IMG/VR virus record: IMGVR_UViG_3300032093_008018
Coordinates: 1 to 18,558 of that record
From: a virus
Taxonomy: Duplodnaviria; Heunggongvirae; Uroviricota; Caudoviricetes
Length of the DNA stretch: 18,558 nucleotides
Direction: 5' to 3' (one strand)
A program made the position numbers and the translations under genes. The first letter of the stretch is position 1. Each line of letters begins with the position of its first letter. Under the pieces are notes generated by a model, which worked only from the letters and a program-made list of their open reading frames with translations, did no database searches and was not told the origin of the DNA. This document shows, in pieces, positions 1-13,820 of the stretch.

Positions 1-58
1 GTTGGAGGATGATGCGTCTAAAAGCATCTGCTACGGCAACTCGCCCAATATCAGGCAT
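1..58 (-). CDS. 5' part of an unknown protein (MPDIGRVAVADAFRRIILQ...), runs off the window
   Basis: ATG at 58-56 preceded by an AAGGAG Shine-Dalgarno; the frame is open to the window edge. Confidence 0.65.
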   Translation of the reverse strand, partial: MPDIGRVAVADAFRRIILQ

Positions 59-90
59 GGATAAACACTCCTTATTTGGAGTATTTATCC
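59..90 (-). promoter_or_regulatory. T4-late-like promoter (GATAAATA, 89-82) inside a 13-bp hairpin that sequesters the RBS
   Basis: GGATAAATACTCC-AAATAA-GGAGTGTTTATCC lies directly before the ATG; the single G.U wobble fits a minus-strand RNA. Confidence 0.65.
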
Positions 91-107
91 GCCTATATTT
101 ACATTGA

Positions 108-1274
108 TTATGCTACTTTTAGTAGAACCACATCTTCATTAATGCGTCCGTTCATTTTAGTGTCTGTAGCATTAATATCATCTAAAAACTTGCGCAATGC
201 TACTTTACCAGCAGCCTTAAACTCTTTGAGTTTTTCTTCAGGTTTGCGAATAGTTTTTTGAATGCTGGTGTTTTCGTTAAACCCTGTAATTGACGTTCCT
301 TTGACACTTAACTCCATGTATTCGTTAGCAACATACTTGCCAAGTTTACGTGTTTTAGTGTTAAAAATCCACAATTCCTTGCTACCAATAATGTCAGCAG
401 GATTAATACTTACAAGTTTCAAAGGCTCATCAGTCTTTTTAAATTTAAGTTTAGCAACAATTTTATCCTTGGGAACAACTTTGGCTTTACGTGGTTTACG
501 ATTAATTTTGGCTTCTTGTGCCAACATATCGCAAGCACTGAGAATTTCATGGTAAAATGCTACAATTTTTTTGACCTGTGCTTTAGTCAAATGACTGTAA
601 CCTTCTTTAAGTTGTTCGTCTTTACCTTCTTGTAAGTCAAGATATTCGTCATACTGACGTTGATAAAAATCTTTAATAATACGAGCGTGTGCAGCTTTAG
701 CGTCTTTGCCTCGCAACAAATTCATGACCTTAAATGCTTTTGGATCAAAAGATTCTGGATCTTGAGAAAAGTTTTCTAGAGCATCTTCAATCTCTTCAGT
801 CATTTTAAAACTAGCTTCTCGAACACGTTCTTGGATTGTAATTTGAGGAATTACAGGTTTTGCTTCGTCAATTTCTTCATCCTCAACGTCATTTTTACCT
901 TCAATAACAATCTTTTGAATTGCTTCACCTAACCATTGTGCAGTGTTGCGCCCCTCGTTAAAGTCTGCACGAACCGGCGGCATTCCTTTTAATAGGTTGG
1001 CTGCAATAGCACCCATAGTGACATTACAACGATTATCGCGGGTCTTTTTAAATTGTGCAATCTGATCTTTGCTATATCCTGCTTGACTCATCCAGTTGAT
1101 AATTTTTGGTTTTAATTCCCTGCCAGAATGCTCTAAGCGATAGTATTCCATAGAGATACGAAACTGTCTGTTGAATTGTTCAGCAGACCAACTTTCGTGA
1201 CCATCCCATTTTGGACTAACATCACGTTTTGAATTTTCACGAATAGCTACGGATTTACTTTTAGTTGTTGCCAC
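108..1274 (-). CDS. hypothetical protein, 388 aa, Lys-rich C-terminal domain
   Basis: long ORF with AGGAG RBS and its own promoter; no motif I can name. Confidence 0.85.
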   Translation of the reverse strand: MATTKSKSVAIRENSKRDVSPKWDGHESWSAEQFNRQFRISMEYYRLEHSGRELKPKIINWMSQAGYSKDQIAQFKKTRDNRCNVTMGAIAANLLKGMPPVRADFNEGRNTAQWLGEAIQKIVIEGKNDVEDEEIDEAKPVIPQITIQERVREASFKMTEEIEDALENFSQDPESFDPKAFKVMNLLRGKDAKAAHARIIKDFYQRQYDEYLDLQEGKDEQLKEGYSHLTKAQVKKIVAFYHEILSACDMLAQEAKINRKPRKAKVVPKDKIVAKLKFKKTDEPLKLVSINPADIIGSKELWIFNTKTRKLGKYVANEYMELSVKGTSITGFNENTSIQKTIRKPEEKLKEFKAAGKVALRKFLDDINATDTKMNGRINEDVVLLKVA

Positions 1275-1307
1275 AATTATCTCCTGTGTGTGTTATAAAA
1301 CAAATAC

Positions 1308-1336
1308 AGTATAGCACCATTTTTTGGATTTGTCAA
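1308..1336 (-). promoter_or_regulatory. sigma70 promoter TTGACA-17-TATACT with extended -10 TG
   Basis: consensus hexamers with a 17-nt spacer upstream of ORF 108..1274. Confidence 0.8.
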
Positions 1337-1530
1337 TCTGCATAAAATCGCTCTATGGTAATTAAATCACCATCTGGATTTTCTTGATATATTACGGTAG
1401 AAGCATATTCACCTTCTTCTAATGCTTTTTTGGCAAGAGTAAGTGCTTCAGTTCTGCTTTTGGTAGTTTCAACCAATTCTTCGTGACCGTCATCATCTTC
1501 GGCCCAGACCTCGTAGAATTCCCAGGTCAT
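1333..1530 (-). CDS. small acidic hypothetical protein, 65 aa
   Basis: ORF with upstream AGGAG, collinear with neighbours. Confidence 0.7.
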   Translation of the reverse strand: MTWEFYEVWAEDDDGHEELVETTKSRTEALTLAKKALEEGEYASTVIYQENPDGDLITIERFYAD

Positions 1531-1555
1531 GATATATTATTAATCTCCTATTAAG

Positions 1556-2110
1556 TTAAACAAATTTTTCCCAATCTCCACCAGGCACCACTGCCCAGCC
1601 AAGACGTTGGAGATCATTCCGGATCTCGTCGGTTACCATGCCTTCTGGCACATATCCTTTAATTCCATCAGCATCGCCGTTACCTAATCCATCTCCAATA
1701 CCAGAGCAGTACCAATCGATGTAGTCACCTTCCTGTCGCATGTCTGCAATAATTCCACCTGCTGATCTCCATGAAGCTGACCAATAGTCTTTGTCTGGAT
1801 CTTGTCTAAGAATTGGAACAACTTCTAGTTTTATAAAATCGTTGTTACATATTGACGCATATAAATTTTGGGCATAAGTTTCGCTGGCACGAACTTTTTC
1901 CAAAATCCAATCAGTGGTTACTAGATCGTATTCCATATTATTAACGTGGCTAGCGGGATCATCAAATTTATGATCGTGATGGTCGATTATTTTTTCAAAA
2001 TAATCAAGATAATCTTCGTTAACTGATTCGCCCTTTTCTGCCTGACGCTTAACATATCCTTCCTTTTGGAAAGAAAAACGATCGGGACTTTTAGACACAG
2101 TCTTGCTCAT
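1556..2110 (-). CDS. hypothetical protein, 184 aa
   Basis: ORF in a tightly packed minus-strand operon. Confidence 0.8.
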   Translation of the reverse strand: MSKTVSKSPDRFSFQKEGYVKRQAEKGESVNEDYLDYFEKIIDHHDHKFDDPASHVNNMEYDLVTTDWILEKVRASETYAQNLYASICNNDFIKLEVVPILRQDPDKDYWSASWRSAGGIIADMRQEGDYIDWYCSGIGDGLGNGDADGIKGYVPEGMVTDEIRNDLQRLGWAVVPGGDWEKFV

Positions 2111-2480
2111 TTGCTTCTTTTAAAACTTTTTTGTTTTCTTTTTTAGACAATCGTTGATTGCGAAAATTTGTTGTATCAACTATAGCAGACTTTAAAGTTT
2201 CTGCATAATTTAATGCAGTTTGTTCATTCATTGTTAATACAGTTTCGTGTTCAAGATAGCCCTTAGTTAAGAGAGTCCAAATCTGTTTGAAACGATTTGT
2301 AGACCACCAAGGCGATTTTACAGTAGCATAGATAGTTACACTGATACCAATATCCTCTGCTTCTACCCAAAGATTATGAGTGTGATCGTCTGAACCACAG
2401 TCACAGACAACGTGATACATTTTAGTATCACCCCAATCATTCTTTTTAAGAATACCTTCTGCTGGTGTCTGTAATTTCAT
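2091..2480 (-). CDS. hypothetical protein, 129 aa
   Basis: ORF overlapping both neighbours (coupled stop/start at 2480). Confidence 0.75.
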   Translation of the reverse strand: MKLQTPAEGILKKNDWGDTKMYHVVCDCGSDDHTHNLWVEAEDIGISVTIYATVKSPWWSTNRFKQIWTLLTKGYLEHETVLTMNEQTALNYAETLKSAIVDTTNFRNQRLSKKENKKVLKEANEQDCV

Positions 2481-2740
2481 TAATGTAAAATTCCTTCGTC
2501 CTTGATATTAAATTTATTAATTTGATCTCTACTGTCGTATATAAAAGAACAAATTTTTTCAAAGTCTTGTTCTGACAAACTAGTTTTATATATCTCTAAA
2601 CCTAACTTAATTAAGATAGGTGCAACTTCTAAACCAGAATATCCTTCACCTAAAGATTTATCCGTTAAATCTAAAAAGGATTTATACAACTGAATTAGTT
2701 TTTGTTCTCGTTCTGAATCAACAGTTTTCATTAGGTCCAT
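2480..2740 (-). CDS. hypothetical protein, 86 aa
   Basis: ORF overlapping both neighbours. Confidence 0.7.
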   Translation of the reverse strand: MDLMKTVDSEREQKLIQLYKSFLDLTDKSLGEGYSGLEVAPILIKLGLEIYKTSLSEQDFEKICSFIYDSRDQINKFNIKDEGILH

Positions 2741-3546
2741 AAGCTTTCTCTTACTTTAATCAAACGAATCATCATTGCTTCATCTTCATCATTGTAGGCT
2801 TTTTCAATCTCTTGACTCTTAGCCAGGGCAATTTTACACATTTCTGCTTCTTCCTTGTTTTTATCTTCCATATCAAGAAGATGATACCCTTTTTCGCGAC
2901 GCATGTCACAGTAAGCACTCCATCCGCTGGCATCATAAACATCTGGACGCTTTGGATAGATTTCCTTCCACCAAGTATATAGTTCTAGTATTTCTTTAGC
3001 AGCTTTGGCCTGATAGGTAGGCTCTGCTAGATGCTTTTGATCTTCGTCTAAAAATTCTTCGTTGGTTAGAGTCATTGCCCATTCTAGATAAGCAATGCCT
3101 GCTTCGGGGCAACGCCAGTTACGATACCAACGACGCCACCATGGATAATCGTATTTTTTCTTATCCTCATCACTCCAAACGCAATGATGCCATGCCTGTT
3201 CTATTTCAACAAAGTCAACAAGCTCATTAAAAAGACATGGAAGAAAACGGTTGCCAACATCACGCCACTCGCCGCGAGGAATGTCGCTTGGGTGAGCAGT
3301 AAGAGCGTGGGCTTTAGTAACCCAGCGATTGTTGATATAGTAGCGTACATCATTGATCCTTTCTGGAATCCAACACCAAACATCTTGAATGCGATCTAAA
3401 CCTTCCTCAGCAATCCACCAACGGATTGGATACTTGGCTTTAGCAGCCTCTTCCCATTCGCGCCATTCTTTTCCTGTGCCGCACTTTAACTTAGTGGTGC
3501 CACGGATCCAATCAGCAAATGGGGAACAGGTCCAATAATTTCTCAT
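2731..3546 (-). CDS. Trp-rich hypothetical protein, 271 aa
   Basis: long ORF with AAGGA RBS, downstream of a consensus promoter. Confidence 0.85.
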   Translation of the reverse strand: MRNYWTCSPFADWIRGTTKLKCGTGKEWREWEEAAKAKYPIRWWIAEEGLDRIQDVWCWIPERINDVRYYINNRWVTKAHALTAHPSDIPRGEWRDVGNRFLPCLFNELVDFVEIEQAWHHCVWSDEDKKKYDYPWWRRWYRNWRCPEAGIAYLEWAMTLTNEEFLDEDQKHLAEPTYQAKAAKEILELYTWWKEIYPKRPDVYDASGWSAYCDMRREKGYHLLDMEDKNKEEAEMCKIALAKSQEIEKAYNDEDEAMMIRLIKVRESLWT

Positions 3547-3584
3547 ATATAATTCCTTTTCAGACTTAGTAGTCGAACACTTTA

Positions 3585-3613
3585 ATTATATGATCTTTTT
3601 AAAAACCTGTCAA
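3585..3613 (-). promoter_or_regulatory. sigma70 promoter TTGACA-17-TATAAT
   Basis: perfect consensus upstream of ORF 2731..3546. Confidence 0.85.
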
Positions 3614-3630
3614 TATGGCAAAAAAATGAA

Positions 3631-4014
3631 TCAAAATTTTCTTTGGTATCCTGCCAAGTTAAGCATAATTGAATACTGCTCATAGGCTTTTTTTACCGCA
3701 GGATTGATATTTCGATAATTTGCTTCTTCTCTTTCTTTGTCCATTAGAGTTTGAAACATATCAATTTCGCCTTTGCTGTGTCGTTGCCATTTGAAGAAAC
3801 GCTTTTCTAATTCTATTAGAGTACGTAATCTGCCTTCTGGAATTTCCATAGTAATTACACGCTCTGTTTCATATTCAACAACATCGTTGCGAATAATATC
3901 AGCACGTTCTGGGTCTGTAAAAAACTTTGGAGGATGGTATCGTGCCCTGCGTTTAGAATCGTTTAGGACACGCACCTCGTAGTTTTCACAAAACTCTGTG
4001 ACTTCTTTATCCAT
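3631..4014 (-). CDS. hypothetical protein, 127 aa
   Basis: ORF overlapping the thyX stop. Confidence 0.8.
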   Translation of the reverse strand: MDKEVTEFCENYEVRVLNDSKRRARYHPPKFFTDPERADIIRNDVVEYETERVITMEIPEGRLRTLIELEKRFFKWQRHSKGEIDMFQTLMDKEREEANYRNINPAVKKAYEQYSIMLNLAGYQRKF

Positions 4015-4693
4015 TTTGGATTAGACTCTCAGTCATCGGGAAGATCGCAGCAATTGCTTTAGCACAGGCCAGAGCCACTAATTGATGTTCTTTCTGTGTG
4101 CCGTTGGCTGATCGTAATTCAATAAAATGTACCCAAGACCGTAACGTGCCATTCATGTAAAGTTTACTTTCAATGTTACCTTCTGGCAGTACAGCACGAG
4201 CTTGTTCTTTGGCTAGGCCGTTCGAGACAGCCCAAGTGTAGGCTTCTTTAGAGGCTCTAATAACAGCCTGTTGTTTTTCTTCCCATAGACGTGCAAGCTC
4301 TCTCTGCTCAGGGTCTGCCATGTCCAATTCAACAGAATTTTGTCTGTTTCTGGTGTCCTGCAACCGTGCTTCTCTAGTGATGAAGTTAAGATCTTTTGTA
4401 GGGTCAGCGTATCGTTGACTAAACTCTTGGAAGGAAAAGCTTCTGTGTCGTAGAATTTGTCTTGCAATGTCTCTTGTGGTTGTGATTTCAACACAGGCTG
4501 AAACCATTTCCAAGGGACTCCAGTGTGCGTGTTTAACAAGATATCGAATAAGCTTCTCTGATGTCTCTGTATTGAATTGGTTGTTTGGGTTGCTGACACG
4601 GGCGCAATACGCAATGAGTTCTTGTGCATCTCCGATTCCCATGTTGGCAAATTCTGCTGTTGGTTGTGAGTAGGATACGAGTTTAACATTCAT
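4007..4693 (-). CDS. thyX: FAD-dependent thymidylate synthase ThyX
   Basis: ThyX signature RHRSFSFQEFSQRY, plus AYCARVS, HWSPLEM and ARAVLP motifs. Confidence 0.97.
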   Translation of the reverse strand: MNVKLVSYSQPTAEFANMGIGDAQELIAYCARVSNPNNQFNTETSEKLIRYLVKHAHWSPLEMVSACVEITTTRDIARQILRHRSFSFQEFSQRYADPTKDLNFITREARLQDTRNRQNSVELDMADPEQRELARLWEEKQQAVIRASKEAYTWAVSNGLAKEQARAVLPEGNIESKLYMNGTLRSWVHFIELRSANGTQKEHQLVALACAKAIAAIFPMTESLIQNG

Positions 4694-5190
4694 TTATTTT
4701 CTTCTTTCTCTTCATCAAAGCATAAACTTTCCATAGTCTTGTAATGTTCATATGCTTTTTTGAGTGCTTCAAATTTTTCTAATTTTTTTGGATCCGGAAC
4801 CAAAATAGCCAATCGTTCTTCCATTTTATCCATGAAAGCCTTTAGGCTTTTTCCATCTACTTTAATATCAGTACCTGGAGCCATATCGATTCCATTGGTT
4901 CCTATAGTTACTGTCGATGGACTACTAGTCCAGGTATTAGACACTGTATAAGTACCAGACGATGTAGTTGTCCAGTTATATGGACTATAATTTGTTGTGG
5001 GAATAGTTACTGAACTAGAAAAATTATTAAGACCGGACAAATCAATTGATTCTATAGGAAGGGGATCTATTGTGATATAATCGACGCCCCCGCCACCAGT
5101 AACATGCATGGTATCTCCGCCGACGTCGATTTTATCAAGATCTAAAATTATATCATCTAATGATATAGCTGGTAGATCCTTACTGTTCAT
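4690..5190 (-). CDS. hypothetical protein with Thr/Ser-rich middle, about 166 aa
   Basis: start reassigned to ATG 5190 (MNSKDLP), 1 nt after the Hc1 stop; the longer start in the ORF track overlaps Hc1. Confidence 0.75.
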   Translation of the reverse strand: MNSKDLPAISLDDIILDLDKIDVGGDTMHVTGGGGVDYITIDPLPIESIDLSGLNNFSSSVTIPTTNYSPYNWTTTSSGTYTVSNTWTSSPSTVTIGTNGIDMAPGTDIKVDGKSLKAFMDKMEERLAILVPDPKKLEKFEALKKAYEHYKTMESLCFDEEKEENK

Positions 5191-5191
5191 A

Positions 5192-5386
5192 TTAAGCTGC
5201 CTTGGCTTCTTTACGAGCGTTCTTTTCTTCTGTAATTTCATTGCGGCGAGCTTTGATTAGTTTGCTCATTTCAGCTAATGCTTTACGAGCACGAGTTCCA
5301 GCTGCACCATTGCCGCTGGTAAATTTTGCATCTTCTGCCAAAAATGCTTCCATTGCTGATTTAATTTGTTCTACTGTGTTTGACAT
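5192..5386 (-). CDS. histone H1-like nucleoid protein, Hc1 family
   Basis: GNGAAGTRARKALAEMSK matches the GNKAAGTRARK core of Hc1-type proteins; AAGGAG RBS. Confidence 0.75.
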   Translation of the reverse strand: MSNTVEQIKSAMEAFLAEDAKFTSGNGAAGTRARKALAEMSKLIKARRNEITEEKNARKEAKAA

Positions 5387-5443
5387 ATAGTCTCCTTTAT
5401 TTGTCTTTTACTTATAGGCAACCTAGTCTATAGCGTAAAAATC

Positions 5444-5554
5444 TGGTGTGGTCGGTAGGATTCGAACCTACAAAGGCTGTGACTAAGTCGGCGCCCCATT
5501 CCCAAGTGCGTTTCGCAACGGACCGGAGGTCTGCCATATTCCACTCACGACCAC
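5444..5554 (-). ncRNA. 111-nt tRNA-like RNA with an expanded anticodon/variable region (Leu-type D arm, possible UGG loop)
   Basis: acceptor stem GTGGTCG/CGACCAC, A73, CCA, T arm GTAGG-TTCGAAT-CCTAC and D-loop GG, but about 55 nt between the D and T arms. Confidence 0.75.
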
Positions 5555-5560
5555 ATGTAA

Positions 5561-5588
5561 ATTATATATTCTTAATTATAAAAGTCAA
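5561..5588 (-). promoter_or_regulatory. sigma70 promoter TTGACT-16-TATAAT
   Basis: predicted +1 falls near 5554, the first base of the tRNA-like RNA. Confidence 0.65.
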
Positions 5589-5613
5589 AAAAATAGGGCA
5601 CCAAAGTGCCCTA
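5587..5613 (-). terminator. intrinsic terminator
   Basis: TAGGGCAC-TTTG-GTGCCCTA followed by a T run, just after the phosphoesterase stop. Confidence 0.8.
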
Positions 5614-5620
5614 AATGTAG

Positions 5621-6226
5621 TTAATCAACTATTGGTCCGTTGCCATTTTTAAAACCAACCGATCCGCCTTCTGCTTCAATACGTTTGATAACATCTTCAA
5701 ACAAGATTGGAGCAAAGTCTGGGATTTGTTCTACGCATACGCAATGATATCTAACATCAATCTCATCTCCGTATAATACAGCACCGGTTCTAGCATCTAC
5801 ACCACGTGCTTTCTTAACTCTGTTAGAGTGTAAGTGACCATGGATGTTAACACCAAAGCGACCTAAACTTGCTTCGTGGACTGGAATATGACTTAAGATC
5901 ATTCCGTTCATAATATGATACGCACGAAGCTCACGGAAGTACTCGTTATATTCTGTATCACGAAAAATGTCGTGATTACCACGAATTAATACTTTGTCGC
6001 CATTTAATCTACTTAAAGTTTTTAATGCTTTGCGATTAATAACAACGTCACCTAAGTGATAGACCTTGTCAGTAGGCTTGACTCTTTCGTTCCAAGCCTC
6101 GATCATTGCTTCATCCATTTCATCTGGATCATCCCACGGCCTTAACTTAGTTCCATCATCACGCAAAAATCGGCACACGCCAGCGTGGCCAAAGTGCGTG
6201 TCGCTAACTAAAAATACGCTAGGCAT
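5621..6226 (-). CDS. calcineurin-like metallophosphoesterase
   Basis: motifs SDTHFGH, HLGDV, RGNHD, SHIP, HGHLH. Confidence 0.92.
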   Translation of the reverse strand: MPSVFLVSDTHFGHAGVCRFLRDDGTKLRPWDDPDEMDEAMIEAWNERVKPTDKVYHLGDVVINRKALKTLSRLNGDKVLIRGNHDIFRDTEYNEYFRELRAYHIMNGMILSHIPVHEASLGRFGVNIHGHLHSNRVKKARGVDARTGAVLYGDEIDVRYHCVCVEQIPDFAPILFEDVIKRIEAEGGSVGFKNGNGPIVD

Positions 6227-6241
6227 AGTGCCCTCCTTTTT

Positions 6242-6436
6242 TTACCAATTTTCTACGCCAGAAATGTCAAAAGTGATATCAGCATCTCTGCCCATAACCT
6301 TTGTTGTTACAATTAACTTTAGAATAGATCCAATGCCACTGGAACTATCACTTTCTAATTTAAAAGTTTCCACCTCTGGAAACTCTGCTAAAATTTCACT
6401 GATTAGTTTTAAATCTTCTTTATGTAGATACATCAA
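6242..6436 (-). CDS. hypothetical protein, 64 aa
   Basis: ORF coupled to the upstream stop (TTTGATG overlap), GGAG RBS. Confidence 0.7.
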   Translation of the reverse strand: MMYLHKEDLKLISEILAEFPEVETFKLESDSSSGIGSILKLIVTTKVMGRDADITFDISGVENW

Positions 6437-6999
6437 ATATCTCCTTCACGCTCTCTACGTTCACGACGTTCTGCCGCTAACATAAAGACTTTTTCATTAT
6501 CGTTAGTCCAATCTACTGTTTTGGTGGGAATTATAATTCCGCTAGATAAAGTCACACCATTGATAGTATGGGGTTCATTTTCATCATAGGTCCAACCTAA
6601 ACATTTCATCATACGGTGCTTGACTAGCAAGTTTGGACTACGAAATGCTTCTGCATCACGGAAGCCCAACATAACACCAACTTCTGCTACTGCACCAGAA
6701 CGACAAACACCTGCATGGCAATGCACTACAACATTCATCTTATTTTCAAGAGCATGTTGTAAGAGTCCGACCAGTTCGCTGGCCTGTTTCTGGCTGCAAC
6801 GCATAGACTCGTCTAATACTTGATCTTTTTCTTCAACATCTAAAAACTTAAATTGATGTTTCTCGCGAAATTGATATTTTGGCTGGGGGAATTCCATATC
6901 CGGATCCACAATTTGAATCAACATAGAATTTACGCCCGCATCTATATGAAATCCGTTACGAACATCGGCTAGCGATACATTTTGAATCCACGGTGTCAT
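6433..6999 (-). CDS. cysteine-based (PTP/DSP-fold) phosphatase
   Basis: P-loop VVVHCHAGVCRS (HCX5R). Confidence 0.88.
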   Translation of the reverse strand: MTPWIQNVSLADVRNGFHIDAGVNSMLIQIVDPDMEFPQPKYQFREKHQFKFLDVEEKDQVLDESMRCSQKQASELVGLLQHALENKMNVVVHCHAGVCRSGAVAEVGVMLGFRDAEAFRSPNLLVKHRMMKCLGWTYDENEPHTINGVTLSSGIIIPTKTVDWTNDNEKVFMLAAERRERREREGDI

Positions 7000-7015
7000 A
7001 ATTTATCCTTTATAT

Positions 7016-7044
7016 ATTATATTATAAACCCACTTAAAATGCAA
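7016..7044 (-). promoter_or_regulatory. sigma70-like promoter TTGCAT-17-TATAAT
   Basis: near-consensus, upstream of the phosphatase operon. Confidence 0.6.
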
Positions 7045-7051
7045 GGAAAAT

Positions 7052-7133
7052 TGGTACCCCTGCCCGGACTCGAACCGGGAACATCTAACACTCCTTTTGA
7101 GAGAGCTGCCTTTACCAATTTGGCCACAGGGGC
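7052..7133 (-). tRNA. tRNA-Leu(CAA)
   Basis: cloverleaf, anticodon loop CT-CAA-AA, A73, CCA; unstructured 10-nt variable loop. Confidence 0.9.
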
Positions 7134-7134
7134 A

Positions 7135-7141
7135 ATAAATA
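7135..7141 (+). promoter_or_regulatory. T4-late-like promoter motif ATAAATA
   Basis: 30 nt upstream of the plus-strand ORF at 7171; similar motifs at 8193-8199 (-), 82-89 (-) and 16605-16611 (+). Confidence 0.45.
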
Positions 7142-7170
7142 GCATTGAACCATTAGGAGCGAACTAATGA

Positions 7171-7944
7171 ATGGATCCAGTAACGCTATTTGCACTAGCT
7201 AACGGAGCAGTTAAGCTAGTAAAAGAAGGGTGTAAACTCTATAAAGATATAAAGGGTGCCGCGGGCGACGTTAAAGACGTGCTCAAGGATCTGGATGACC
7301 AATTCCATAACAGATACAAAGATCGTACGCCTACAGTTGCAGAAAGAAATCAATATGTAACCGAGCGTAATCGAGTAGTTGAATTAAACAAAAAAGGTGG
7401 AGAAACGACTAATATCTATCAAGAAATTGGTCAACATCTAGGGGCCTATTTTGACAACTATTACAAATGTCTAGCAATATTTGAAGAAGAAGAACGCCGT
7501 AACAAAACAGAAGTTTATACTGGCGAAGATAGTCTTGGTAAACGTGCTCTACAACGTGTTCTAATGAAAAAACAATTGGAACACATGTCTTCTGAACTTC
7601 GAGAAATCATGGTGTATCAGTCTCCTCCAGAATTAGGTGCATTGTGGAGTGATGTTGAAGAAATGATGCAAACGGTTGGAAAGGAACAAAGAGTTGCTAT
7701 TACCAATCAAATGCGCAGATACGAAATAGAGCAGCGCAGAAAAAAAGCCAGGAAAGATAAAATGACACATCAAGCAGTTATTGGTATATCTATCTTAACC
7801 TGTATATTTTTAGTTTCTTATATGTTCTTGGTAATCATACAAGGAAGAATCGAGCGTGACCCAGAACTTGGAAATTGTTGGGTTCCTAAAGGTTCATATC
7901 TTTATAAAAAGTGGACTAATACCGTTTGGGCTACTTGTGAATAA
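7171..7944 (+). CDS. hypothetical coiled-coil protein with a C-terminal transmembrane helix
   Basis: 257-aa ORF with AGGAG RBS; hydrophobic stretch AVIGISILTCIFLVSYMFLVII. Confidence 0.85.
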   Translation: MDPVTLFALANGAVKLVKEGCKLYKDIKGAAGDVKDVLKDLDDQFHNRYKDRTPTVAERNQYVTERNRVVELNKKGGETTNIYQEIGQHLGAYFDNYYKCLAIFEEEERRNKTEVYTGEDSLGKRALQRVLMKKQLEHMSSELREIMVYQSPPELGALWSDVEEMMQTVGKEQRVAITNQMRRYEIEQRRKKARKDKMTHQAVIGISILTCIFLVSYMFLVIIQGRIERDPELGNCWVPKGSYLYKKWTNTVWATCE

Positions 7945-8187
7945 TTATAAATCGTTGGCATCTATACAAGTGCCGCCTTTAAATACATAAACATCTGAAT
8001 CCATACGCAACTGTTCAAATACATGATTGTTTACACACTTGTAAGGATCTTTTTTATTCTGAACAAAATAATAAACGCCGTAACCTAAACCTGCTAATAG
8101 CATGAGGATAGGAATATATTTTAAAAAGGAAATGATTTGCGGCATCATTCCTAATATCTGCGGCAGCTTTTCCAGTAGCTCTTTCAT
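7945..8187 (-). CDS. small membrane protein, 80 aa
   Basis: hydrophobic segment YIPILMLLAGLGYGVYYF; abuts the convergent ORF. Confidence 0.7.
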   Translation of the reverse strand: MKELLEKLPQILGMMPQIISFLKYIPILMLLAGLGYGVYYFVQNKKDPYKCVNNHVFEQLRMDSDVYVFKGGTCIDANDL

Positions 8188-8200
8188 ACTGTTATTTATT

Positions 8201-8276
8201 TGGTGCTGATGAGCGGGATCGAACCGCTGACCTCATTCTTACCAAGAATGTGCGCTACCTACTGTGCCACATCAGC
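8201..8276 (-). tRNA. tRNA-Thr(GGT)
   Basis: cloverleaf, loop TT-GGT-AA, CCA. Confidence 0.95.
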
Positions 8277-8283
8277 TAGTAAA

Positions 8284-8358
8284 TGGCCCGGCTGCTAGGA
8301 ATCGAACCTAGATTTAGGGTTTAGAAGACCCTTGTTCTATCCATTGAACTACAGCCAG
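8284..8358 (-). tRNA. tRNA-Arg(TCT)
   Basis: cloverleaf, loop CT-TCT-AA, CCA. Confidence 0.95.
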
Positions 8359-8363
8359 AAACT

Positions 8364-8437
8364 TGGAGCGGAATATCGGAATCGAACCGATGACTAGAGC
8401 TTGGAAGGCTTTCGTTTTACCATTAAACTAATCCCGC
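8364..8437 (-). tRNA. tRNA-Gly(TCC)
   Basis: cloverleaf, loop CT-TCC-AA, U73, CCA. Confidence 0.95.
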
Positions 8438-8446
8438 ATGAAAAAC

Positions 8447-8475
8447 ATTATACAGTCATTTTGTTTTTGCTGCAA
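8447..8475 (-). promoter_or_regulatory. sigma70-like promoter TTGCAG-17-TATAAT
   Basis: directly upstream of the Gly-Arg-Thr tRNA trio. Confidence 0.55.
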
Positions 8476-8851
8476 TCTCTTTATAACCTGCTCCGGTGGG
8501 GTGAACACCATCTTTTTGTAATTTAGTAATTGGAATTATAACATCATTATAATCTTTTGCAACTAGTTCGACCATCTTTTGTATATGCGGTTTGATAGCT
8601 GGCATTATCCAATATACTTTATCTGCATTTACTCTGTTTCTTAACTGTTGTAATTCCCAGAGTGTGCGAACGCCAGAATGATCGTTAGATCCAAGACTGA
8701 TTATTACAGTTTTAGCTGCTACGGGATTGTCACGATTCTTTTTATTCCAGTCATGACTGTTAATACCGCCTTTACTCAAACTTACACATTCTGGTCTGAA
8801 CTGAGCAGTACCAACAGCAATACTATCACCTACAATTAAACATTCTAACAT
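8456..8851 (-). CDS. SGNH/GDSL hydrolase
   Basis: blocks VGDSIA, SLGSND and DGVHP. Confidence 0.9.
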   Translation of the reverse strand: MLECLIVGDSIAVGTAQFRPECVSLSKGGINSHDWNKKNRDNPVAAKTVIISLGSNDHSGVRTLWELQQLRNRVNADKVYWIMPAIKPHIQKMVELVAKDYNDVIIPITKLQKDGVHPTGAGYKEIAAKTK

Positions 8852-8862
8852 TTAATATCCTT

Positions 8863-8938
8863 TGGAGCGGGTGAACAGTCTCGAACTGTCGACCTTAACT
8901 TTGGCAAAGTTACGCTCTACCAACTGAGCTACACCCGC
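8863..8938 (-). tRNA. tRNA-Gly(GCC)
   Basis: cloverleaf, loop TT-GCC-AA, U73, CCA. Confidence 0.95.
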
Positions 8939-8988
8939 ATTAAATGACACACTACTTATCTCATTGTACGCCATGTGTCAGGGCGAAA

Positions 8989-9141
8989 TTAACTTGGTAC
9001 CACATGAGGAATGTAAGGTACTGCTCTAGGACCACCATACAGTTGTTCAAAAAGTTTTTTAGCCTCTTGCGGTGTATCTGCATAGATTCTTTTCTTTTCC
9101 TCACCACCGGATGTTCTTACAGTTGTTTCATACATTGGCAT
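8989..9141 (-). CDS. small hypothetical protein, 50 aa (MPMYETTV...)
   Basis: AAGGAG 6 nt before ATG 9141; the longer start in the ORF track lies inside tRNA-Pro. Confidence 0.75.
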   Translation of the reverse strand: MPMYETTVRTSGGEEKKRIYADTPQEAKKLFEQLYGGPRAVPYIPHVVPS

Positions 9142-9157
9142 GTCATACTCCTTAATA

Positions 9158-9236
9158 TGGTCCGGGAAGTGGGATTCGAACTCACGATCTCCTGCTCCCA
9201 AAGCAGGCGCTTTAAGCCAGACTAAGCTACACCCGG
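9158..9236 (-). tRNA. tRNA-Pro(TGG)
   Basis: cloverleaf, loop TT-TGG-GA, C1-G72, A73, CCA. Confidence 0.95.
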
Positions 9237-9241
9237 GTAAT

Positions 9242-9317
9242 TGGTTGCAGAGGCAGGATTCGAACCTGCGATTCCCGGCTTATGAGACCGGACGGATGAC
9301 CACTTCCATACTCTGCG
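9242..9317 (-). tRNA. initiator-type tRNA-fMet(CAT)
   Basis: loop CT-CAT-AA with the C1:A72 mismatch typical of bacterial initiators. Confidence 0.88.
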
Positions 9318-9321
9318 TCAA

Positions 9322-9490
9322 ACTTTTATTGATAGTACTCAAGCCTTATAGGACTGAGCAAATTTCTGAGTGGAGTTCGATTCTCCTCATAAGCCATTGC
9401 CCGCAGTTTTATCAGAAGAGAAAGATGGCCCTATTCTTCATGAGTCTGTGCGTCCACAAACGATACCTGCAGAGTGCTATCAATAAAAGT
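9322..9490. ncRNA. candidate structured RNA closed by a 19-bp stem
   Basis: 9322-9340 is complementary to 9472-9490; internal hairpins; strand unresolved. Confidence 0.5.
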
Positions 9491-9688
9491 GTCTAGCCAC
9501 GGTTCCCTGTCCGCCCTAGACTGAGTTGTTACCCTGTCCACTGTATTCTGCTTCTGGCGCCGTTACAGTTCGTACCTAGGATTTCTCAAGTCGCTCCTAA
9601 AGAGAGCCTTGCGGTAGATCCTAAACACCGTACCTTCTATCGCTTGGTAATGGCGCACTTTCTTCCTGAAAAGTGTAACAGGGGTCTG
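9491..9688 (-). ncRNA. candidate multibranched structured RNA
   Basis: non-coding and GC-elevated; nested stems GCGCC-A-TTAC/GTAA-C-GGCGC, TAGGAT/ATCCTA, CC-GCAA-GG, GTCTAG/CTAGAC. Confidence 0.5.
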
Positions 9689-10261
9689 TTAGATCAAACC
9701 TTCTATTTGAAGGACTTGAGCTGCTTCGTCACTGAGTGGAATCTCAGTTTTAATATTAAGCTCAAGAATTTCGTCATTGAGCTTTTGTTTTTGTTTTTTA
9801 AGATTTTTAATCTCGGATTGAATTGCTTTAATCTTTTCCTGTGTCAGTACAGAAGTTGTTACAGTGTCGCCGTAACCATAAATGCGACTACGTGCTTCGT
9901 CTTTGAGACTTTTGATTTTCTCAAGTTTACCTTTAAGTACGTCAAGGCTGGTTACTGCATTGCTGTTAGCAACAGCATCAAGTTGACTAATTCTCTTGTC
10001 AACATAGGCTGCACGAGCCAACTTAAGATCAATGCCGCTTTCGGCATTAGCTTGACCAACTAGGCCGCGAATGTTGTAGAGTACAACCAACAACTTTTCA
10101 CGACGAAGATCAGCTTCTTCTAGTTTTTTTTGTGCAGCAGCAATCTCTGCTTCTACATTTTGAAACTCGTTGAGTTCAAGATTAGTTTCAATCTTGATAT
10201 GTTTGATTGCTTCATTGATGCTGTTTTGTACAGCACTTGCTTTACGTAGTGTGATATTCAT
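9689..10261 (-). CDS. coiled-coil hypothetical protein, 190 aa
   Basis: long helical ORF with AAGGA RBS, overlapping the rpoZ end. Confidence 0.85.
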
Positions 10262-10487
10262 CTGTTTCTTTCCTTTTTTTGCCTTTAACTTTGCTCAAAT
10301 AATCTTTCCAAGTATATTTGCCTTGTTCAATTTCTCTTAGTGCAGTTACAGTTGTTGAGGCATCCTTTCCTTCTACACGTTGCATAGAACCATTTTTTAA
10401 TTCTCTTGCACGTTGTGATGCCGCTAGCACTAAATTAAATCTGTTTCCAATTTGTTCTACTGCTTTTTCTGATGTTACTTTTGCCAT
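10242..10487 (-). CDS. rpoZ: RNA polymerase omega subunit (phage-encoded)
   Basis: [30 protein letters not shown]...[11 protein letters not shown] matches the RpoZ pattern; AAGGAG RBS; start reassigned to ATG 10487. Confidence 0.9.
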
Positions 10488-10499
10488 TGCTCGCTCCTT

Positions 10500-10528
10500 A
10501 TTATAATGACGGTTCGGTAAAAGGTCAA
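10500..10528 (-). promoter_or_regulatory. possible sigma70 promoter TTGACC-17-TATAAT
   Basis: directly upstream of the rpoZ RBS, inside the 3' helix of the upstream RNA candidate. Confidence 0.5.
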
Positions 10529-10783
10529 GTAATAGACCGGACAATTGACAGACAGGATAGCGTATGAGGCATTTCCTTCTACAACGTGCAACAAACAGGC
10601 TACAGAGGCCTGAATATTTCCGATCAGCAATTGACAGTCTAATAAAAGATATTTGGAATCGGTTCACTCAAGCACGACACTTTTCAAGAGTGTTTGCCAG
10701 ATTAAGTCATTGCGGCATGAAGCCACAATATGTCTATTCTCATCTACCTTTTACTTCACCGGTTGCAACATTTCTGTTACAAC
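10512..10783 (-). ncRNA. candidate ~270-nt structured RNA upstream of rpoZ
   Basis: 5' GAAA-capped 9-bp hairpin, long-range helices AAAAGGT/ACCTTTT and AATAGAC/GTCTATT, several internal hairpins, dedicated promoter. Confidence 0.6.
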
Positions 10784-10789
10784 AAAACT

Positions 10790-10818
10790 AGTATATGATA
10801 AAAAAAGACTTTAGTCAA
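10790..10818 (-). promoter_or_regulatory. sigma70 promoter TTGACT-17-TATACT
   Basis: predicted +1 near 10783; the -35 box lies inside the inverted repeat AAAAAGACT-N7-AGTCTTTTT. Confidence 0.75.
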
Positions 10819-10869
10819 GTCTTTTTGAAAAAGTGACAATCTTTTTTGTGTCAGGAAGATTGTCAAACC

Positions 10870-10932
10870 CCGTGAGCGCAGCCCATCCTGTTTTCGCGTC
10901 AGCGGAGGCGGAATATGGTTACAGGTCCGCCT
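10870..10932 (-). ncRNA. candidate two-hairpin RNA with complementary loops
   Basis: AGGCGGA/TCCGCCT hairpin plus a 9-bp bulged hairpin; loop segments CCTGT/ACAGG and CCAT/ATGG are complementary. Confidence 0.5.
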
Positions 10933-10940
10933 TAGATATT

Positions 10941-11015
<75 letters not shown>

Positions 11016-11021
11016 ATATTC

Positions 11022-11720
11022 TTAATTATAATCTTTTTTAAAACTATTGTAAAGTTCTTTAGCTATTAATTTATGACCTTCTATGTTTGGATGGCCGCAT
11101 TTATATTGAAATATTTTATGATGATCTAACATTGAACTAAATTCATCAACCCATTTTAAATTATTTTTATAATAGTCTGGAATAGGCGGACTAGGATTAA
11201 TTCTAGTAAATCTATAATTTATATTCCATTTGTCAAAAAACGATGCTAGAGAATTAAGATGAACTAAAAATTCTGAAATAAACAGTTCATCAGATTCGTA
11301 AAATCTATTTTGTAAGTACTCGTATCTATTTTGTTTAACATTAGGAATTACAACATCTAATTTTATTAAATTAAATCTATCAAATTTTTCATCATAAATT
11401 TCATATCTTGATGGTTCAGTCCATTGTATAACTGCAACCCAGTCTGATAAATTTTCGTTATTTTTTATTTTATCTATAAAAAAATCAAACGTTGTTCTAA
11501 CTATTCTTTGATTTGATCCACACCCAATTGCAAAATTAACTGTTTCTGTACAATTTAATAAATTTGATAAATGAGATGGCCATACAGAAGACAGCCGATA
11601 ATTTTTTTTATCTTGTTCTTCTTTATTAAAAAAACTAGGCCATAATACTCCATCAAAACCTTGTTCTTCTAAGATTCCGCCGCCCCATGTGTGGCTGCAT
11701 CCATTTGCAAATAACTTCAT
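11022..11720 (-). CDS. SGNH-hydrolase-like protein
   Basis: ANGCSHTWG near the N-terminus, GCGSN and C-terminal GHPNIEGH; very AT-rich; ATG 11720 taken as start. Confidence 0.75.
   Translation of the reverse strand: MKLFANGCSHTWGGGILEEQGFDGVLWPSFFNKEEQDKKNYRLSSVWPSHLSNLLNCTETVNFAIGCGSNQRIVRTTFDFFIDKIKNNENLSDWVAVIQWTEPSRYEIYDEKFDRFNLIKLDVVIPNVKQNRYEYLQNRFYESDELFISEFLVHLNSLASFFDKWNINYRFTRINPSPPIPDYYKNNLKWVDEFSSMLDHHKIFQYKCGHPNIEGHKLIAKELYNSFKKDYN
11025..11053 (-). promoter_or_regulatory. sigma70 promoter TTTACA-17-TATAAT
   Basis: directly upstream of tRNA-Asn. Confidence 0.6.
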
Positions 11721-11727
11721 AGACAAT

Positions 11728-11803
11728 TGGTGCTGGAGAAAGGATTCGAACCCTCGACCGCCTGATTACAAATCAGGAGCTCTACCAACTGAGCTACTCC
11801 AGC
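11728..11803 (-). tRNA. tRNA-Thr(TGT)
   Basis: cloverleaf, loop TT-TGT-AA, CCA. Confidence 0.95.
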
Positions 11804-11808
11804 GTTTT

Positions 11809-11970
11809 TTACTTACTGCTCGATTCTAATTGTTTAATACGATTACGAATCTTTGCTTTATCTTTTGGTCTGCTAGATTTCTCTAACATGTCATTGAGTT
11901 GCGCAAGATTTAAAGGACCAAGGCGTGTTTTTCCTGTCTTGGTTTTCATTGGATCACCTTTCTCGCCCAT
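11809..11970 (-). CDS. small basic protein, 53 aa (MGEKGDPMKTKTGKTRLGPLNL...)
   Basis: manually translated ORF, 2 nt after the upstream stop; below the ORF-track cutoff. Confidence 0.65.
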   Translation of the reverse strand: MGEKGDPMKTKTGKTRLGPLNLAQLNDMLEKSSRPKDKAKIRNRIKQLESSSK

Positions 11971-11972
11971 AA

Positions 11973-12101
11973 TTATCGTCCTTGTCCTCTATATGCTTTG
12001 CGAGTTTTATTACTCTTATTCGCAGTAGATGTCTTACTACCATTTTGACAAGTATTTTTGTGAACTCTTTTATGAGTACCTGCTTGACCTTTAACTGCCA
12101 T
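11973..12101 (-). CDS. small basic protein, 42 aa, ending KAYRGQGR
   Basis: manually translated; AAGGA RBS before ATG 12101. Confidence 0.7.
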   Translation of the reverse strand: MAVKGQAGTHKRVHKNTCQNGSKTSTANKSNKTRKAYRGQGR

Positions 12102-12121
12102 AATGTTTCCTTTTTGTTATT

Positions 12122-12197
12122 TGGTGGACCAGACAGGACTTGAACCCGCCACCTTGACCTTGCAAAGGTCCTGCTCTCCCAGATGAGCTACTGGCCC
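12122..12197 (-). tRNA. tRNA-Ala(TGC)
   Basis: cloverleaf, G3.U70, loop TT-TGC-AA, CCA. Confidence 0.95.
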
Positions 12198-12202
12198 TAA
12201 TT

Positions 12203-12406
12203 TCATTTACCGAAATGTTTATCTAACACTTCTAATTTATCTTCATATTCAGCAATGTGTGCTATTTCATTTTCCATTGCAGTCATCCAATCTGTGTGAT
12301 CATGTATAGCAATTGGATTATTTAACATTACTTCTACATTCATGCGATGCTTTTCAACATGACTTTTGAAGTGTGCTTTTGCAGCTTTGAGTAATTGTTC
12401 TCTCAC
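12203..12406 (-). CDS. hypothetical protein, 67 aa
   Basis: ORF with AAGGA RBS. Confidence 0.75.
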   Translation of the reverse strand: MREQLLKAAKAHFKSHVEKHRMNVEVMLNNPIAIHDHTDWMTAMENEIAHIAEYEDKLEVLDKHFGK

Positions 12407-12416
12407 GATAGTTTCC

Positions 12417-12665
12417 TTAGGATTGTTGTACTGCTTTAGATTCTGCTAAACGTTTTTGATACTCTGATTCGGACAATGAATGCCATCCGATGCACTTTCC
12501 AGTTGGACTACGACCGCAGCCACATTTACCAACTTCATTATCGTTTTCTTGCAATTTAGGTGTCATAGTGTTCTTTCTAAAAATATTATCGTAGTTATCT
12601 CTGTAAGATTTTGATGCTGACTTAGTCTGAATGGAATCCCCAGTGACATCATTCTTTGCTACCAT
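12417..12665 (-). CDS. small protein with a possible CDGSH-like/Zn-binding Cys-His cluster
   Basis: CGCGRSPTGKCIGWH motif. Confidence 0.65.
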   Translation of the reverse strand: MVAKNDVTGDSIQTKSASKSYRDNYDNIFRKNTMTPKLQENDNEVGKCGCGRSPTGKCIGWHSLSESEYQKRLAESKAVQQS

Positions 12666-12840
12666 TATCCCTAGATCCTTCGTTTCGTTTACCTTTTTCT
12701 CTCTTGGGCTGAATAGCTGCTGCTAATTCTGCTTGAATAGCACTACGTTTAAATGCGCCACGTTCGTGATTATCAATAATAGTTGCTATCAATCTTTTGG
12801 ACTGCTTACTTAACTTAAAGTTTGGACCTGCTTTTAACAT
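12649..12840 (-). CDS. small basic hypothetical protein, about 63 aa (MLKAGPNF...)
   Basis: AAGGA RBS before ATG 12840; the longer version in the ORF track overlaps tRNAs. Confidence 0.7.
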   Translation of the reverse strand: MLKAGPNFKLSKQSKRLIATIIDNHERGAFKRSAIQAELAAAIQPKREKGKRNEGSRDNGSKE

Positions 12841-12860
12841 TATTTTTCCTTTTATAAACT

Positions 12861-12948
12861 TGGCGGAGAGTATAGGATTCGAACCTATGCGCCACTTTCG
12901 CAACGACGGTTTAGCAAACCGCTGCCTTAACCACTCGGCCAACTCTCC
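12861..12948 (-). tRNA. tRNA-Ser(GCT)
   Basis: type II cloverleaf, loop TT-GCT-AA, G73, CCA. Confidence 0.95.
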
Positions 12949-12953
12949 AATTC

Positions 12954-13053
12954 TGGTGCCTCTGGCAGGACTCGAACCTGCACACGCCGGCTTATCTGGC
13001 CGGTGCTTTGGGGAGATATAAGCTCCCGTCTTTACCAATTAAGCTACAGAGGC
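12954..13053 (-). tRNA. tRNA-Ile(TAT) with a 29-nt variable arm
   Basis: anticodon stem GGGAG/CTCCC, loop CT-TAT-AT; acceptor end GCCT/AGGC-A shared with the Ile(GAT) gene; CCA. Confidence 0.85.
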
Positions 13054-13062
13054 CTGATACGC

Positions 13063-13137
13063 TGGTGCATCGTAATGGAGTCGAACCACTGACATTCGCC
13101 TTGTAAGGGCGACGTTCTACCGCTGAACTAACGATGC
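13063..13137 (-). tRNA. tRNA-Val(TAC)
   Basis: cloverleaf, loop CT-TAC-AA, CCA. Confidence 0.95.
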
Positions 13138-13138
13138 A

Positions 13139-13351: not shown

Positions 13352-13360
13352 AATATTCCT

Positions 13361-13437: not shown

Positions 13438-13460
13438 ATAAAAATTTAATTATTGCAGAA

Positions 13461-13646: not shown

Positions 13647-13662
13647 GTTAATCTCCTTGTTC

Positions 13663-13739: not shown

Positions 13740-13742
13740 ATA

Positions 13743-13818: not shown

Positions 13819-13820
13819 AT

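Follow-up and report, generated by a model that had tools for sequence, protein, structure and literature searches.

The stretch of DNA analysed here (the window) comprises positions 1 to 18,558 of IMG/VR virus record IMGVR_UViG_3300032093_008018 (Duplodnaviria; Heunggongvirae; Uroviricota; Caudoviricetes), the first 18.6 kb of an 82.5-kb viral contig that is estimated to be only 23% complete and therefore derives from a very large phage. On its minus strand, at 5444-5554, lies a 111-nt tRNA-shaped sequence, with genes for a metallophosphoesterase and a dual-specificity-phosphatase-like protein on its upstream flank and genes for an Hc1-like (histone H1-like) protein and ThyX on its downstream flank. 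The original prediction, made from the sequence letters, had described this element as a tRNA mimic with an intact acceptor stem, A73-CCA, T arm and Leu-type D loop, all of which are present, and had proposed that tRNA finders be run on it. ARAGORN and Rfam were run, and neither calls the element: each lists 27 tRNAs in the window (Rfam at its gathering score), and the Rfam tRNA model at relaxed thresholds gives the element 25.4 bits against a cut-off of 29, aligning the acceptor stem and T arm only and skipping the middle. Comparison with its relatives gives good confidence that the element is a real, non-decoding tRNA-shaped RNA.

Two alignments are referred to below, A1 (53 sequences with less than 93% mutual identity) and A2 (38 close relatives of the window copy). 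The parts of the RNA in the window copy, from its 5' end to its 3' end, are:

5548-5554, minus strand: 5' strand of the acceptor stem, GUGGUCG (RNA positions 1-7), with predicted start G1; the helix is 99.7% paired and six of its seven pairs are compensatory
5527-5547, minus strand: U8 and G9, then the D arm (RNA 10-28); invariant columns, with pairing assigned from tRNA homology
5502-5526, minus strand: H1, the hairpin at the anticodon-arm position (RNA 29-53); 99.0% paired, with four compensatory pairs, in the 38 close relatives
5498-5501, minus strand: invariant G54 (equivalent to tRNA position 45) and a 3-nt variable linker, AAU, with 34% pairwise identity
5472-5497, minus strand: H2, the long variable arm (RNA 58-82), with covarying helices, then invariant U83 (equivalent to U48)
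5455-5471, minus strand: T arm, GUAGG-UUCGAAU-CCUAC (RNA 84-100); 100% paired, with three of five pairs compensatory and U54, U55, C56 and A58 invariant
5444-5454, minus strand: 3' strand of the acceptor stem, CGACCAC (5454-5448), discriminator A (5447) and encoded CCA (5446-5444), from alignment A1

The acceptor stem of the window copy is a perfect helix of 7 bp (GUGGUCG/CGACCAC). The D arm has the pairs A10-U28, G11-C27 and G13-C26, with U12 bulged and G14.A25 unpaired, and its Leu-type loop carries the invariant pattern GGAA..GG.A.A (GGAAUAUGGCAGAC in the mimic, compared with GGAAUUGGUAUAC in the phage's own tRNA-Leu genes). H1 is built on C29-G53 and C30-G52, followed by a 1x2 internal loop (G31 versus U50 U51) and an upper helix (G32-C49, U33-A48, a C34.C47 mismatch, C35-G46, G36-C45, U37-A44 and U38-A43) closed by the tetraloop GCGA (RNA 39-42); it is without a 7-nt anticodon loop. 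H2 consists of an outer helix running from G58.U82 to C62-G78, a 3x3 internal loop, an inner helix GAC/GUC and a UUA triloop.

The fold is supported by comparative evidence, because single-sequence folding of the window copy is uninformative (minimum free energy z = -0.80, with a minimum free energy fold that differs from the covarying fold). Pairs of the acceptor stem, D stem, base of the first hairpin, second hairpin and T stem were counted in A1 against 500 shuffles and against controls in which the 3' partners were slid. Standard pairs occupy 98.3% of cells, and 15 of the 25 pairs have changed on both sides, in 120 cells, which none of the 500 shuffles equalled; shifting the 3' partners by 1-3 columns lowers pairing to 30-50%. 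The covarying pairs comprise six of the seven in the acceptor stem, three in the T stem and six in the variable arm, where the helix is seen as GAC/GUC, GUC/GAC, GCU/AGC or GGC/GCC among relatives. The three D-stem pairs are invariant in A1, so covariation says nothing about them either way. Discriminator A is found in all 53 sequences and CCA in 51, the exceptions being L127 (UAG) and L182 (CCG).

Between its D arm and its T arm, every member of the family folds into two hairpins. Two models of this middle region were compared on A2. Counted jointly with the variable arm, the H1 model (a base of C29-G53 and C30-G52, the 1x2 internal loop, a helix of about eight pairs, and a GNRA tetraloop at its tip) is 98.8% paired with eight compensatory pairs, and none of 500 shuffles is as good. 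The original prediction had drawn the middle as an anticodon arm with stem UCCGU/AUGGG and loop CU-UGG-GA, into which a UGCG-AAA-CGCA hairpin is inserted; this fold is 82.5% paired on the same alignment, 267 of 500 shuffles equal it, and three of the five outer pairs of the UCCGU/AUGGG stem are broken in 14-17 of the 38 sequences. Because the H1 model outperforms the anticodon fold, the apparent proline anticodon is not a loop at all, and its U U G G is the internal loop and 3' strand of the hairpin base. Two further parts of the original prediction hold: the long extra arm GGC..GAC-UUA-GUC..GCC is real and covaries, and the element is not the proline decoder of the phage, which has an ordinary tRNA-Pro(UGG) at 9158-9236.

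Across the family, H1 varies from 12 to 34 nt and falls into at least eight classes. Its ends include GNRA tetraloops (GCGA, GUGA, GGGA, GAGA, GUAA and GAAA), UUCG or UUUG loops whose stem is a bare 6 bp, CUUG loops whose stem is a bare 4 bp, a pentaloop (YYAUA), a loop of 7 nt (CUUAAUU), and an AGUA/GAA internal loop resembling the sarcin-ricin motif that is borne on an extra hairpin. Mean pairwise identity is 29% in inner H1, 57% in the variable arm, 87% in the D arm, 92% in the T arm and 96% in A73-CCA. These RNAs do not decode, because a tetraloop-capped stem that varies in length has no way of presenting three bases to a codon. Selection evidently preserves whatever would be required by proteins that read the body, elbow, acceptor end and long arm of a tRNA, and in the anticodon-side hairpin it is closure that matters, not sequence or length. 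Three relatives (L032, L111 and L127) share an identical 28-nt hairpin with the CUUAAUU loop despite different acceptor stems, T loops and variable arms, which suggests either sequence-level selection on that version or exchange of the hairpin as a module.

Relatives were collected by scanning IMG/VR for exact matches to a 28-nt strand of the T arm plus acceptor stem, which found 106 contigs, and for the conserved 5' motif AGUGGAA..GG.A.ACCUSC, which found more than 120 and also recovered other acceptor and T stems. The two scans combined gave at least 157 complete loci and at least 83 distinct sequences, all of them 96-118 nt in length except for a single truncated copy. Two subfamilies are distinguished. 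Subfamily A (at least 125 loci) has GUGGUCG-type acceptor stems, and in at least 108 loci the RNA is followed by an Hc1-like open reading frame (ORF); subfamily B (at least 32 loci) has GUAGACG-type acceptor stems, and the ORF behind its RNA encodes a secreted protein, about 105 aa long, that carries an HExxH-like motif. Examples of the latter ORF (L115:2139-2465 and L148:5969-6184, both plus strand) encode a signal peptide and a GHExxHC motif and have no Pfam or PHROG family; about 1.2 kb further downstream in subfamily B is a 72-aa ORF that by eye resembles translation initiation factor IF-1.

Five phage records, 82-400 kb in size, each contain exactly one copy of the element according to a covariance model (R1) built from A1, with scores of 89-115 bits; two of these records are estimated to be 94% and 100% complete. 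The hosts of the family are uncultured large freshwater phages. No match to the element was found by blastn in 50,697 GenBank phage records, and R1 finds nothing above 45 bits in PA5oct, vB_OspM_OC, phiN3, Cr30 or DLP_6, cultured large phages that have one shared protein (24-39% identity). A scan of 185,579 prokaryote species genomes gave 38 motif matches, all of them spurious or true tRNAs, in a search that required the exact 5' motif and that divergent relatives could escape. Cyanophage S-SRM01 carries a related histone H1 gene, but the space upstream of it is too small for an RNA of this kind. Caulobacter phage Cr30 (KF301602.1) contains at 81134-81292 (plus strand) a 159-nt stretch with a weak full-length match to R1 (27.2 bits), which could be a long or interrupted tRNA-like gene. 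As a separate matter, a primer-binding-site role was considered and rejected: there is no second copy or complement of the RNA 3' end in the 82.5-kb record, and the other matches are the T arms of Tyr and Ser tRNAs.

The body of the RNA is that of a leucine tRNA. Columns invariant in A1 include U8, A14, A15, G18, G19, A20a, U48, U54, U55, C56, A58 and A73, where A14 and A15 are numbered on the assumption that one U (U12) is bulged. The identity elements for leucine in E. coli are A73, A15:U48, G18G19, A20a and the tertiary pairs between D and T loops, and G73 would block leucyl-tRNA synthetase (LeuRS) (PMC9976931); the sequences of the anticodon and the long arm are irrelevant to this enzyme, which still charges tRNA-Leu lacking the anticodon arm (PMC9976931, Giege and Eriani 2023). 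In A1, A73 is present in 53 of 53 sequences and the residues of A15:U48, G18G19, A20a, U8:A14, U54:A58, G18:U55 and G19:C56 are all invariant, identity residues being judged by sequence and tertiary pairs by presence of the residues. Because all known bacterial LeuRS identity elements are present and the anticodon arm is ignored, the mimic would probably be bound and leucylated by host LeuRS, and on these residues we lean modestly towards its being leucylatable.

R1 scores place the element (114.7 bits) far above ordinary tRNAs, of which the phage's own tRNA-Leu(UAA) comes next at 42.9 bits, with T4 tRNA-Leu at 36.3, tRNA-Leu(UAG) at 32.1, Tyr at 30.7 and Ser at 24.3. A 100-nt tRNA at 12954-13053 (minus strand) in the window scores 34.0 bits with R1; its anticodon region reads UAU and its variable arm is 29 nt long, and it is found by Rfam (57.5 bits over 97 nt, 12957-13053) and absent from the ARAGORN list.

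The features that bear on the start of the transcript are:

5594-5613, minus strand: intrinsic terminator belonging to the phosphoesterase gene upstream (a stem of 8 bp, a 4-nt loop and a T run), which ends the preceding transcription unit
5561-5588, minus strand: sigma70-type promoter with -35 box TTGACT (5588-5583), 16-nt spacer and -10 box TATAAT (5566-5561), matching the consensus at 11 of 12 positions
8364-8437, 10941-11015, 13361-13437 and 13980-14056, minus strand: promoter-bearing ordinary tRNAs, with sigma70-like promoters

The placement originally proposed for the element, by a terminator (5613-5594) and a promoter of its own whose +1 coincides with base 1, was borne out, the promoter coming directly after the terminator: the -10 box ends at 5561 and base 1 is at 5554, with six bases between them, a normal start-site distance. 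Among the loci listed there are 85 distinct upstream regions, and in 84 of them the best -10 hexamer ends exactly 6 nt before base 1; in all but one region this hexamer matches TATAAT at five or six of six positions. The -35 and -10 boxes stand 17 nt apart in 76 regions and 16 nt apart in the other nine, a -35 box is recognisable in most, and base 1 is always a purine (G in 82, A in three). The four ordinary tRNAs of the array that have their own sigma70-like promoters (Asn, Gly-UCC, Leu-UAG and Arg-UCG) lie 9-11 nt from -10 box to base 1, and therefore have short leaders that RNase P must remove; the array is thus transcribed from several internal promoters with short leaders. The mimic, with its -10 box fixed 6 nt before base 1, is expected to start leaderless. 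Within the window it alone appears to be arranged so that initiation itself would create the mature 5' end, and the RNA would bear a 5' triphosphate. The leaderless spacing is kept even inside a dense tRNA array, where a tRNA gene follows 5 nt after CCA in L207 and 8 nt after it in L050, which argues that the 3' end of the mimic is matured like that of a tRNA.

Neighbouring genes on the two strands of the window include:

5192-5386, minus strand: gene for the 64-aa Hc1-like protein (Pfam PF07432, E = 1.9e-14), the next same-strand gene after the RNA
16630-18556, plus strand: two radical-SAM genes, the second with a SPASM domain, divergent from the minus-strand block

The Hc1-like gene is probably cotranscribed with the 111-nt RNA by read-through. 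The spacer from the CCA of the mimic to the Hc1-like start codon (5387-5443, minus strand) holds a small AU-rich hairpin and, at 5409-5416, a YAUAAGUA motif that is conserved across subfamily A and may be a processing site or an operator. The motif is locus-specific, because it occurs once on that strand of the 82.5-kb record; TATAAGTA, tried as a general (late) promoter motif, was rejected as not genome-wide on the same count of a single copy on that strand in 82.5 kb.

The mimic lies 1.5 kb from the tRNA array in the window and 23-40 kb from the tRNA arrays in the four other phage records. In most relatives the divergent radical-SAM gene pair abuts the promoter of the mimic, an adjacency that reflects the shared gene order of related phages; in the window, the tRNA array of about 9 kb (7052-15837, minus strand) and the two phosphatase genes look like an insertion between the radical-SAM genes and the mimic. 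A conserved 184-aa protein (1556-2110, minus strand), in which many Trp, Tyr and Cys residues are invariant, is encoded near the mimic in both subfamilies (at least 70 loci). Its AlphaFold2 model, confident at pLDDT 81, matches nothing in the PDB and only unnamed clusters of the AlphaFold DB, and the protein belongs to no Pfam or PHROG family.

The best explanation of the locus, put forward tentatively, is that it encodes a stable RNA that imitates a class-II leucine tRNA, does not decode and acts as a decoy. Like a tRNA gene, and unlike the leader of one particular mRNA, it is followed by a different gene in each subfamily, and by a tRNA gene in L207 and L050. The consensus host-type promoter suggests early expression: host RNA polymerase would produce an early, abundant, leaderless RNA with a 5' triphosphate for which RNase P would be unneeded, its 3' end would be trimmed to CCA like that of a tRNA, and it would fold into the tRNA L-shape. 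Host LeuRS would probably bind and leucylate it, and the mimic, unable to pair with a codon, would stay outside decoding. As a trans-acting decoy or occupier, a role to which we give slightly less than even odds, it would displace real class-II tRNA from a host protein that recognises the body of the tRNA.

The favoured target would be a tRNA-targeting antiphage nuclease or toxin, the alternatives being LeuRS itself or a sensor of uncharged tRNA. Nucleases that cut anticodon loops include recently described bacterial Schlafen-like enzymes (PMC13434031). Such a nuclease would meet no anticodon loop to cut in most members, although a few keep a loop-like hairpin end, and because no anticodon loop is offered the RNA could act against it only as an uncleavable competitor through the tRNA body. 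It is doubtful that the mimic is specifically anti-defence, and still more so that it is an RNA-only counter-defence, in which an uncleavable tRNA-Leu decoy would jam a host tRNA-targeting immune nuclease or toxin and so protect the real tRNA pool. In that version the RNA would be made from its consensus host-type promoter within minutes of infection and bind the nuclease or toxin via its class-II tRNA body, and the hypervariable hairpin would be the trace of an arms race.

Several points weigh against a decoy. The D stem has a bulged U that is found in no canonical tRNA-Leu, and its invariant pairs escape covariation. The variable arm is longer than that of any tRNA-Leu and partly conserved (an NUA triloop), so that LeuRS binding alone is not enough to account for it. 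A stoichiometric decoy directed at a catalytic nuclease would need tight binding or a very high copy number. A search of the five phage records for candidate partner genes yielded no PTH2 (PF01981), L/F-transferase (leucyl/phenylalanyl-tRNA-protein transferase, PF03588), TROVE/Ro60, CCA-adding enzyme or class Ia synthetase. Freshwater and river metatranscriptome contigs contain relatives of the mimic (for instance a 633-nt contig spanning 5448-5568 with 10 differences), yet contigs from RNA libraries cannot show transcription, ends or strand, and carry-over of DNA is possible (four assemblies). Finally, the RNA always heads its transcription unit, which would fit a role in cis equally well.

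Such a role in cis is the main rival, and we consider it unlikely. The RNA would be the 5' module of an early operon, whose tRNA-shaped 5' end shields the downstream mRNA from 5'-end-dependent decay, or else a processing signal or a means of loading a factor onto the transcription complex in the manner of put/nut RNAs, the released RNA being functionless. At every locus the RNA is indeed found at the start of a transcription unit with base 1 at the predicted +1, and the ORF behind it, which has a Shine-Dalgarno sequence, lies a median of 42 nt (subfamily A) or 26 nt (subfamily B) further on. In most loci of subfamily A the CCA is not followed by a T run, and the spacer has its conserved YAUAAGUA motif and hairpin. 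A stabilising hairpin, however, has no need of an invariant T loop, G18G19, A15/U48, A73 or CCA; the downstream gene is unlike between the subfamilies and is a tRNA in L207 and L050; and the long variable arm shows covariation and a constant length.

The full set of LeuRS identity elements and the CCA end of the decoy candidate would also suit a leucyl carrier for chemistry off the ribosome, reserving leucine for an aminoacyl-tRNA-dependent transferase of host or phage (L/F-transferase-like, Fem-like, or one for peptide or DNA modification), and radical-SAM and other unannotated genes are syntenic with the mimic. We regard this role as distinctly improbable. For such enzymes ordinary Leu-tRNA would do equally well, the radical-SAM synteny is accounted for by the gene order common to related phages, and no L/F-transferase (PF03588) is encoded in the five phage records, other families of aminoacyl-tRNA-dependent enzymes lying outside that search.

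It is extremely unlikely that the RNA is a decoding tRNA, whether for Pro(UGG), as a Leu-charged miscoder with an insertion, or with a removable intron hairpin. In the window sequence taken alone the heptamer CUUGGGA can be drawn as a loop, a few relatives have loop-like heptamers (CUCAUAG and CUUAAUU) at the hairpin tip, and ARAGORN forces Pro, Arg or '???' calls on six relatives with short hairpins. The anticodon-stem model, however, is no better than shuffles, 'UUGGG' being the 3' strand and internal loop of the covarying hairpin; most members end in GNRA, UUCG or CUUG tetraloops and have no exon-like anticodon halves; of 16 members scored (the window copy and 15 relatives), none reaches the Rfam tRNA gathering score; and the phage already has 28 tRNAs, including Pro and three Leu species. 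An intron-containing tRNA was rejected as well, as the Rfam scan finds no intron family and the shortest members, with 4-6 bp and a tetraloop, leave nothing to splice. The Leu-charged miscoder that had been suggested at the outset is thereby excluded, there being no UGG anticodon loop and the hairpin in its position being hypervariable and usually sealed by a tetraloop. The original prediction was otherwise largely right in seeing a Leu-type mimic with its own promoter, and wrong in its anticodon fold.

A decaying, functionless tRNA-Leu pseudogene, which the silence of the tRNA finders and the abnormal look of the middle might suggest, is hardly credible given at least 83 distinct variants, compensatory changes in four helices, a near-invariant core, a near-consensus promoter at a fixed distance and one copy in each of five phage records; homologues that covary, where a random middle might have been met, mark a selected gene, as originally supposed.

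Among known RNAs, the nearest phage precedent is the species 1 RNA of T4 (rnaC, 139 nt; L210:1909-2047, minus strand), which folds far better than shuffles (z = -4.57). The T4 species 1 and 2 RNAs (rnaC and rnaD) are likewise small stable RNAs by a phage tRNA cluster, and rnaC has a T arm and paired ends. Homology between rnaC and the mimic is limited to the T arm (21.3 bits with R1), rnaC ends in ...GUA instead of CCA, no Leu-type D loop is seen in it, and in the T4 record rnaC and rnaD lie directly behind tRNA genes on the same strand. To our knowledge, the function of these two RNAs has gone unexplained for fifty years.

Phages carry tRNAs, and those of T4, T5 and the mycobacteriophage sets escape or replace tRNAs cut by PrrC, PARIS, retron-PtuAB and Schlafen-like anticodon nucleases. 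The mimic resembles these defence-escaping tRNAs (cf. PMC13434031) in having a phage-borne tRNA shape and an anticodon region unlike that of the host, beside a large tRNA array, but they decode and the mimic cannot. With the tRNA-like domain of transfer-messenger RNA (tmRNA) and with YrlA it shares a non-decoding character, retention of the elbow and acceptor side, and lack of an anticodon. However, tmRNA has the alanine identity pair G3.U70, pseudoknots and a tag frame, whereas the mimic has G3-C70 or A3-U70 in 51 of 53 sequences, is 111 nt long and receives no tmRNA call from ARAGORN or Rfam; and the ends of YrlA form a Ro-binding stem and need Ro60, whereas those of the mimic form an acceptor stem with ACCA and the five phage records have no TROVE match. 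Selenocysteine tRNA (tRNA-Sec) and allo-tRNA have 8/5 or 9/4 stems, a 6-bp D stem and a UCA anticodon, in contrast to the 7/5 stems, 3-bp D stem and missing anticodon loop of the mimic.

The closest likeness is to bacterial and phage tRNA-Leu (RF00005), with which the mimic shares the 7-bp acceptor stem, A73-CCA, the 5-bp T stem with its UUCGAAU loop, the GGAA..GG.A.A D loop, A15/U48 and a long variable arm. Judged as a canonical tRNA, it has the acceptor stem, discriminator, CCA, T arm with a UUCRA loop and G18G19, and lacks the anticodon arm and the gathering score. Unlike tRNA-Leu it has a sealed hairpin, free in both sequence and length, in place of the anticodon loop, a bulged U in the D stem, a longer variable arm of about 25 nt and a predicted start without a 5' leader. 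The family is absent from Rfam 15 and no description of it was found in the literature searched, which included the 2023 catalogue of 10,006 candidate viral RNAs, subscription-only papers being outside the search.

The family lends itself to experiment, being small and strongly covarying, and it carries a clear biochemical prediction, leucylation by LeuRS without decoding; its leaderless design likewise predicts a tRNA-like RNA that bears a 5' triphosphate and needs no RNase P for its making. Should it prove to be a decoy that works against tRNA-targeting immunity or a tRNA sensor, phage counter-defence would gain an RNA-based mechanism, and the failure of present tRNA finders to detect such genes would also be explained; if it were merely a 5' stabiliser, it would still be a new use of the tRNA fold. 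An engineered minimal tRNA-Leu without an anticodon arm is leucylated if A73 and the contacts between D and T loops are kept (Larkin et al. 2002, via PMC9976931). Such minimal substrates are laboratory constructs, whereas the mimic is a natural, conserved phage gene that by its sequence keeps exactly those features. Among non-decoding tRNA look-alikes it is a new, well-supported family, unusual in its leucine identity set and in its predicted leaderless start.

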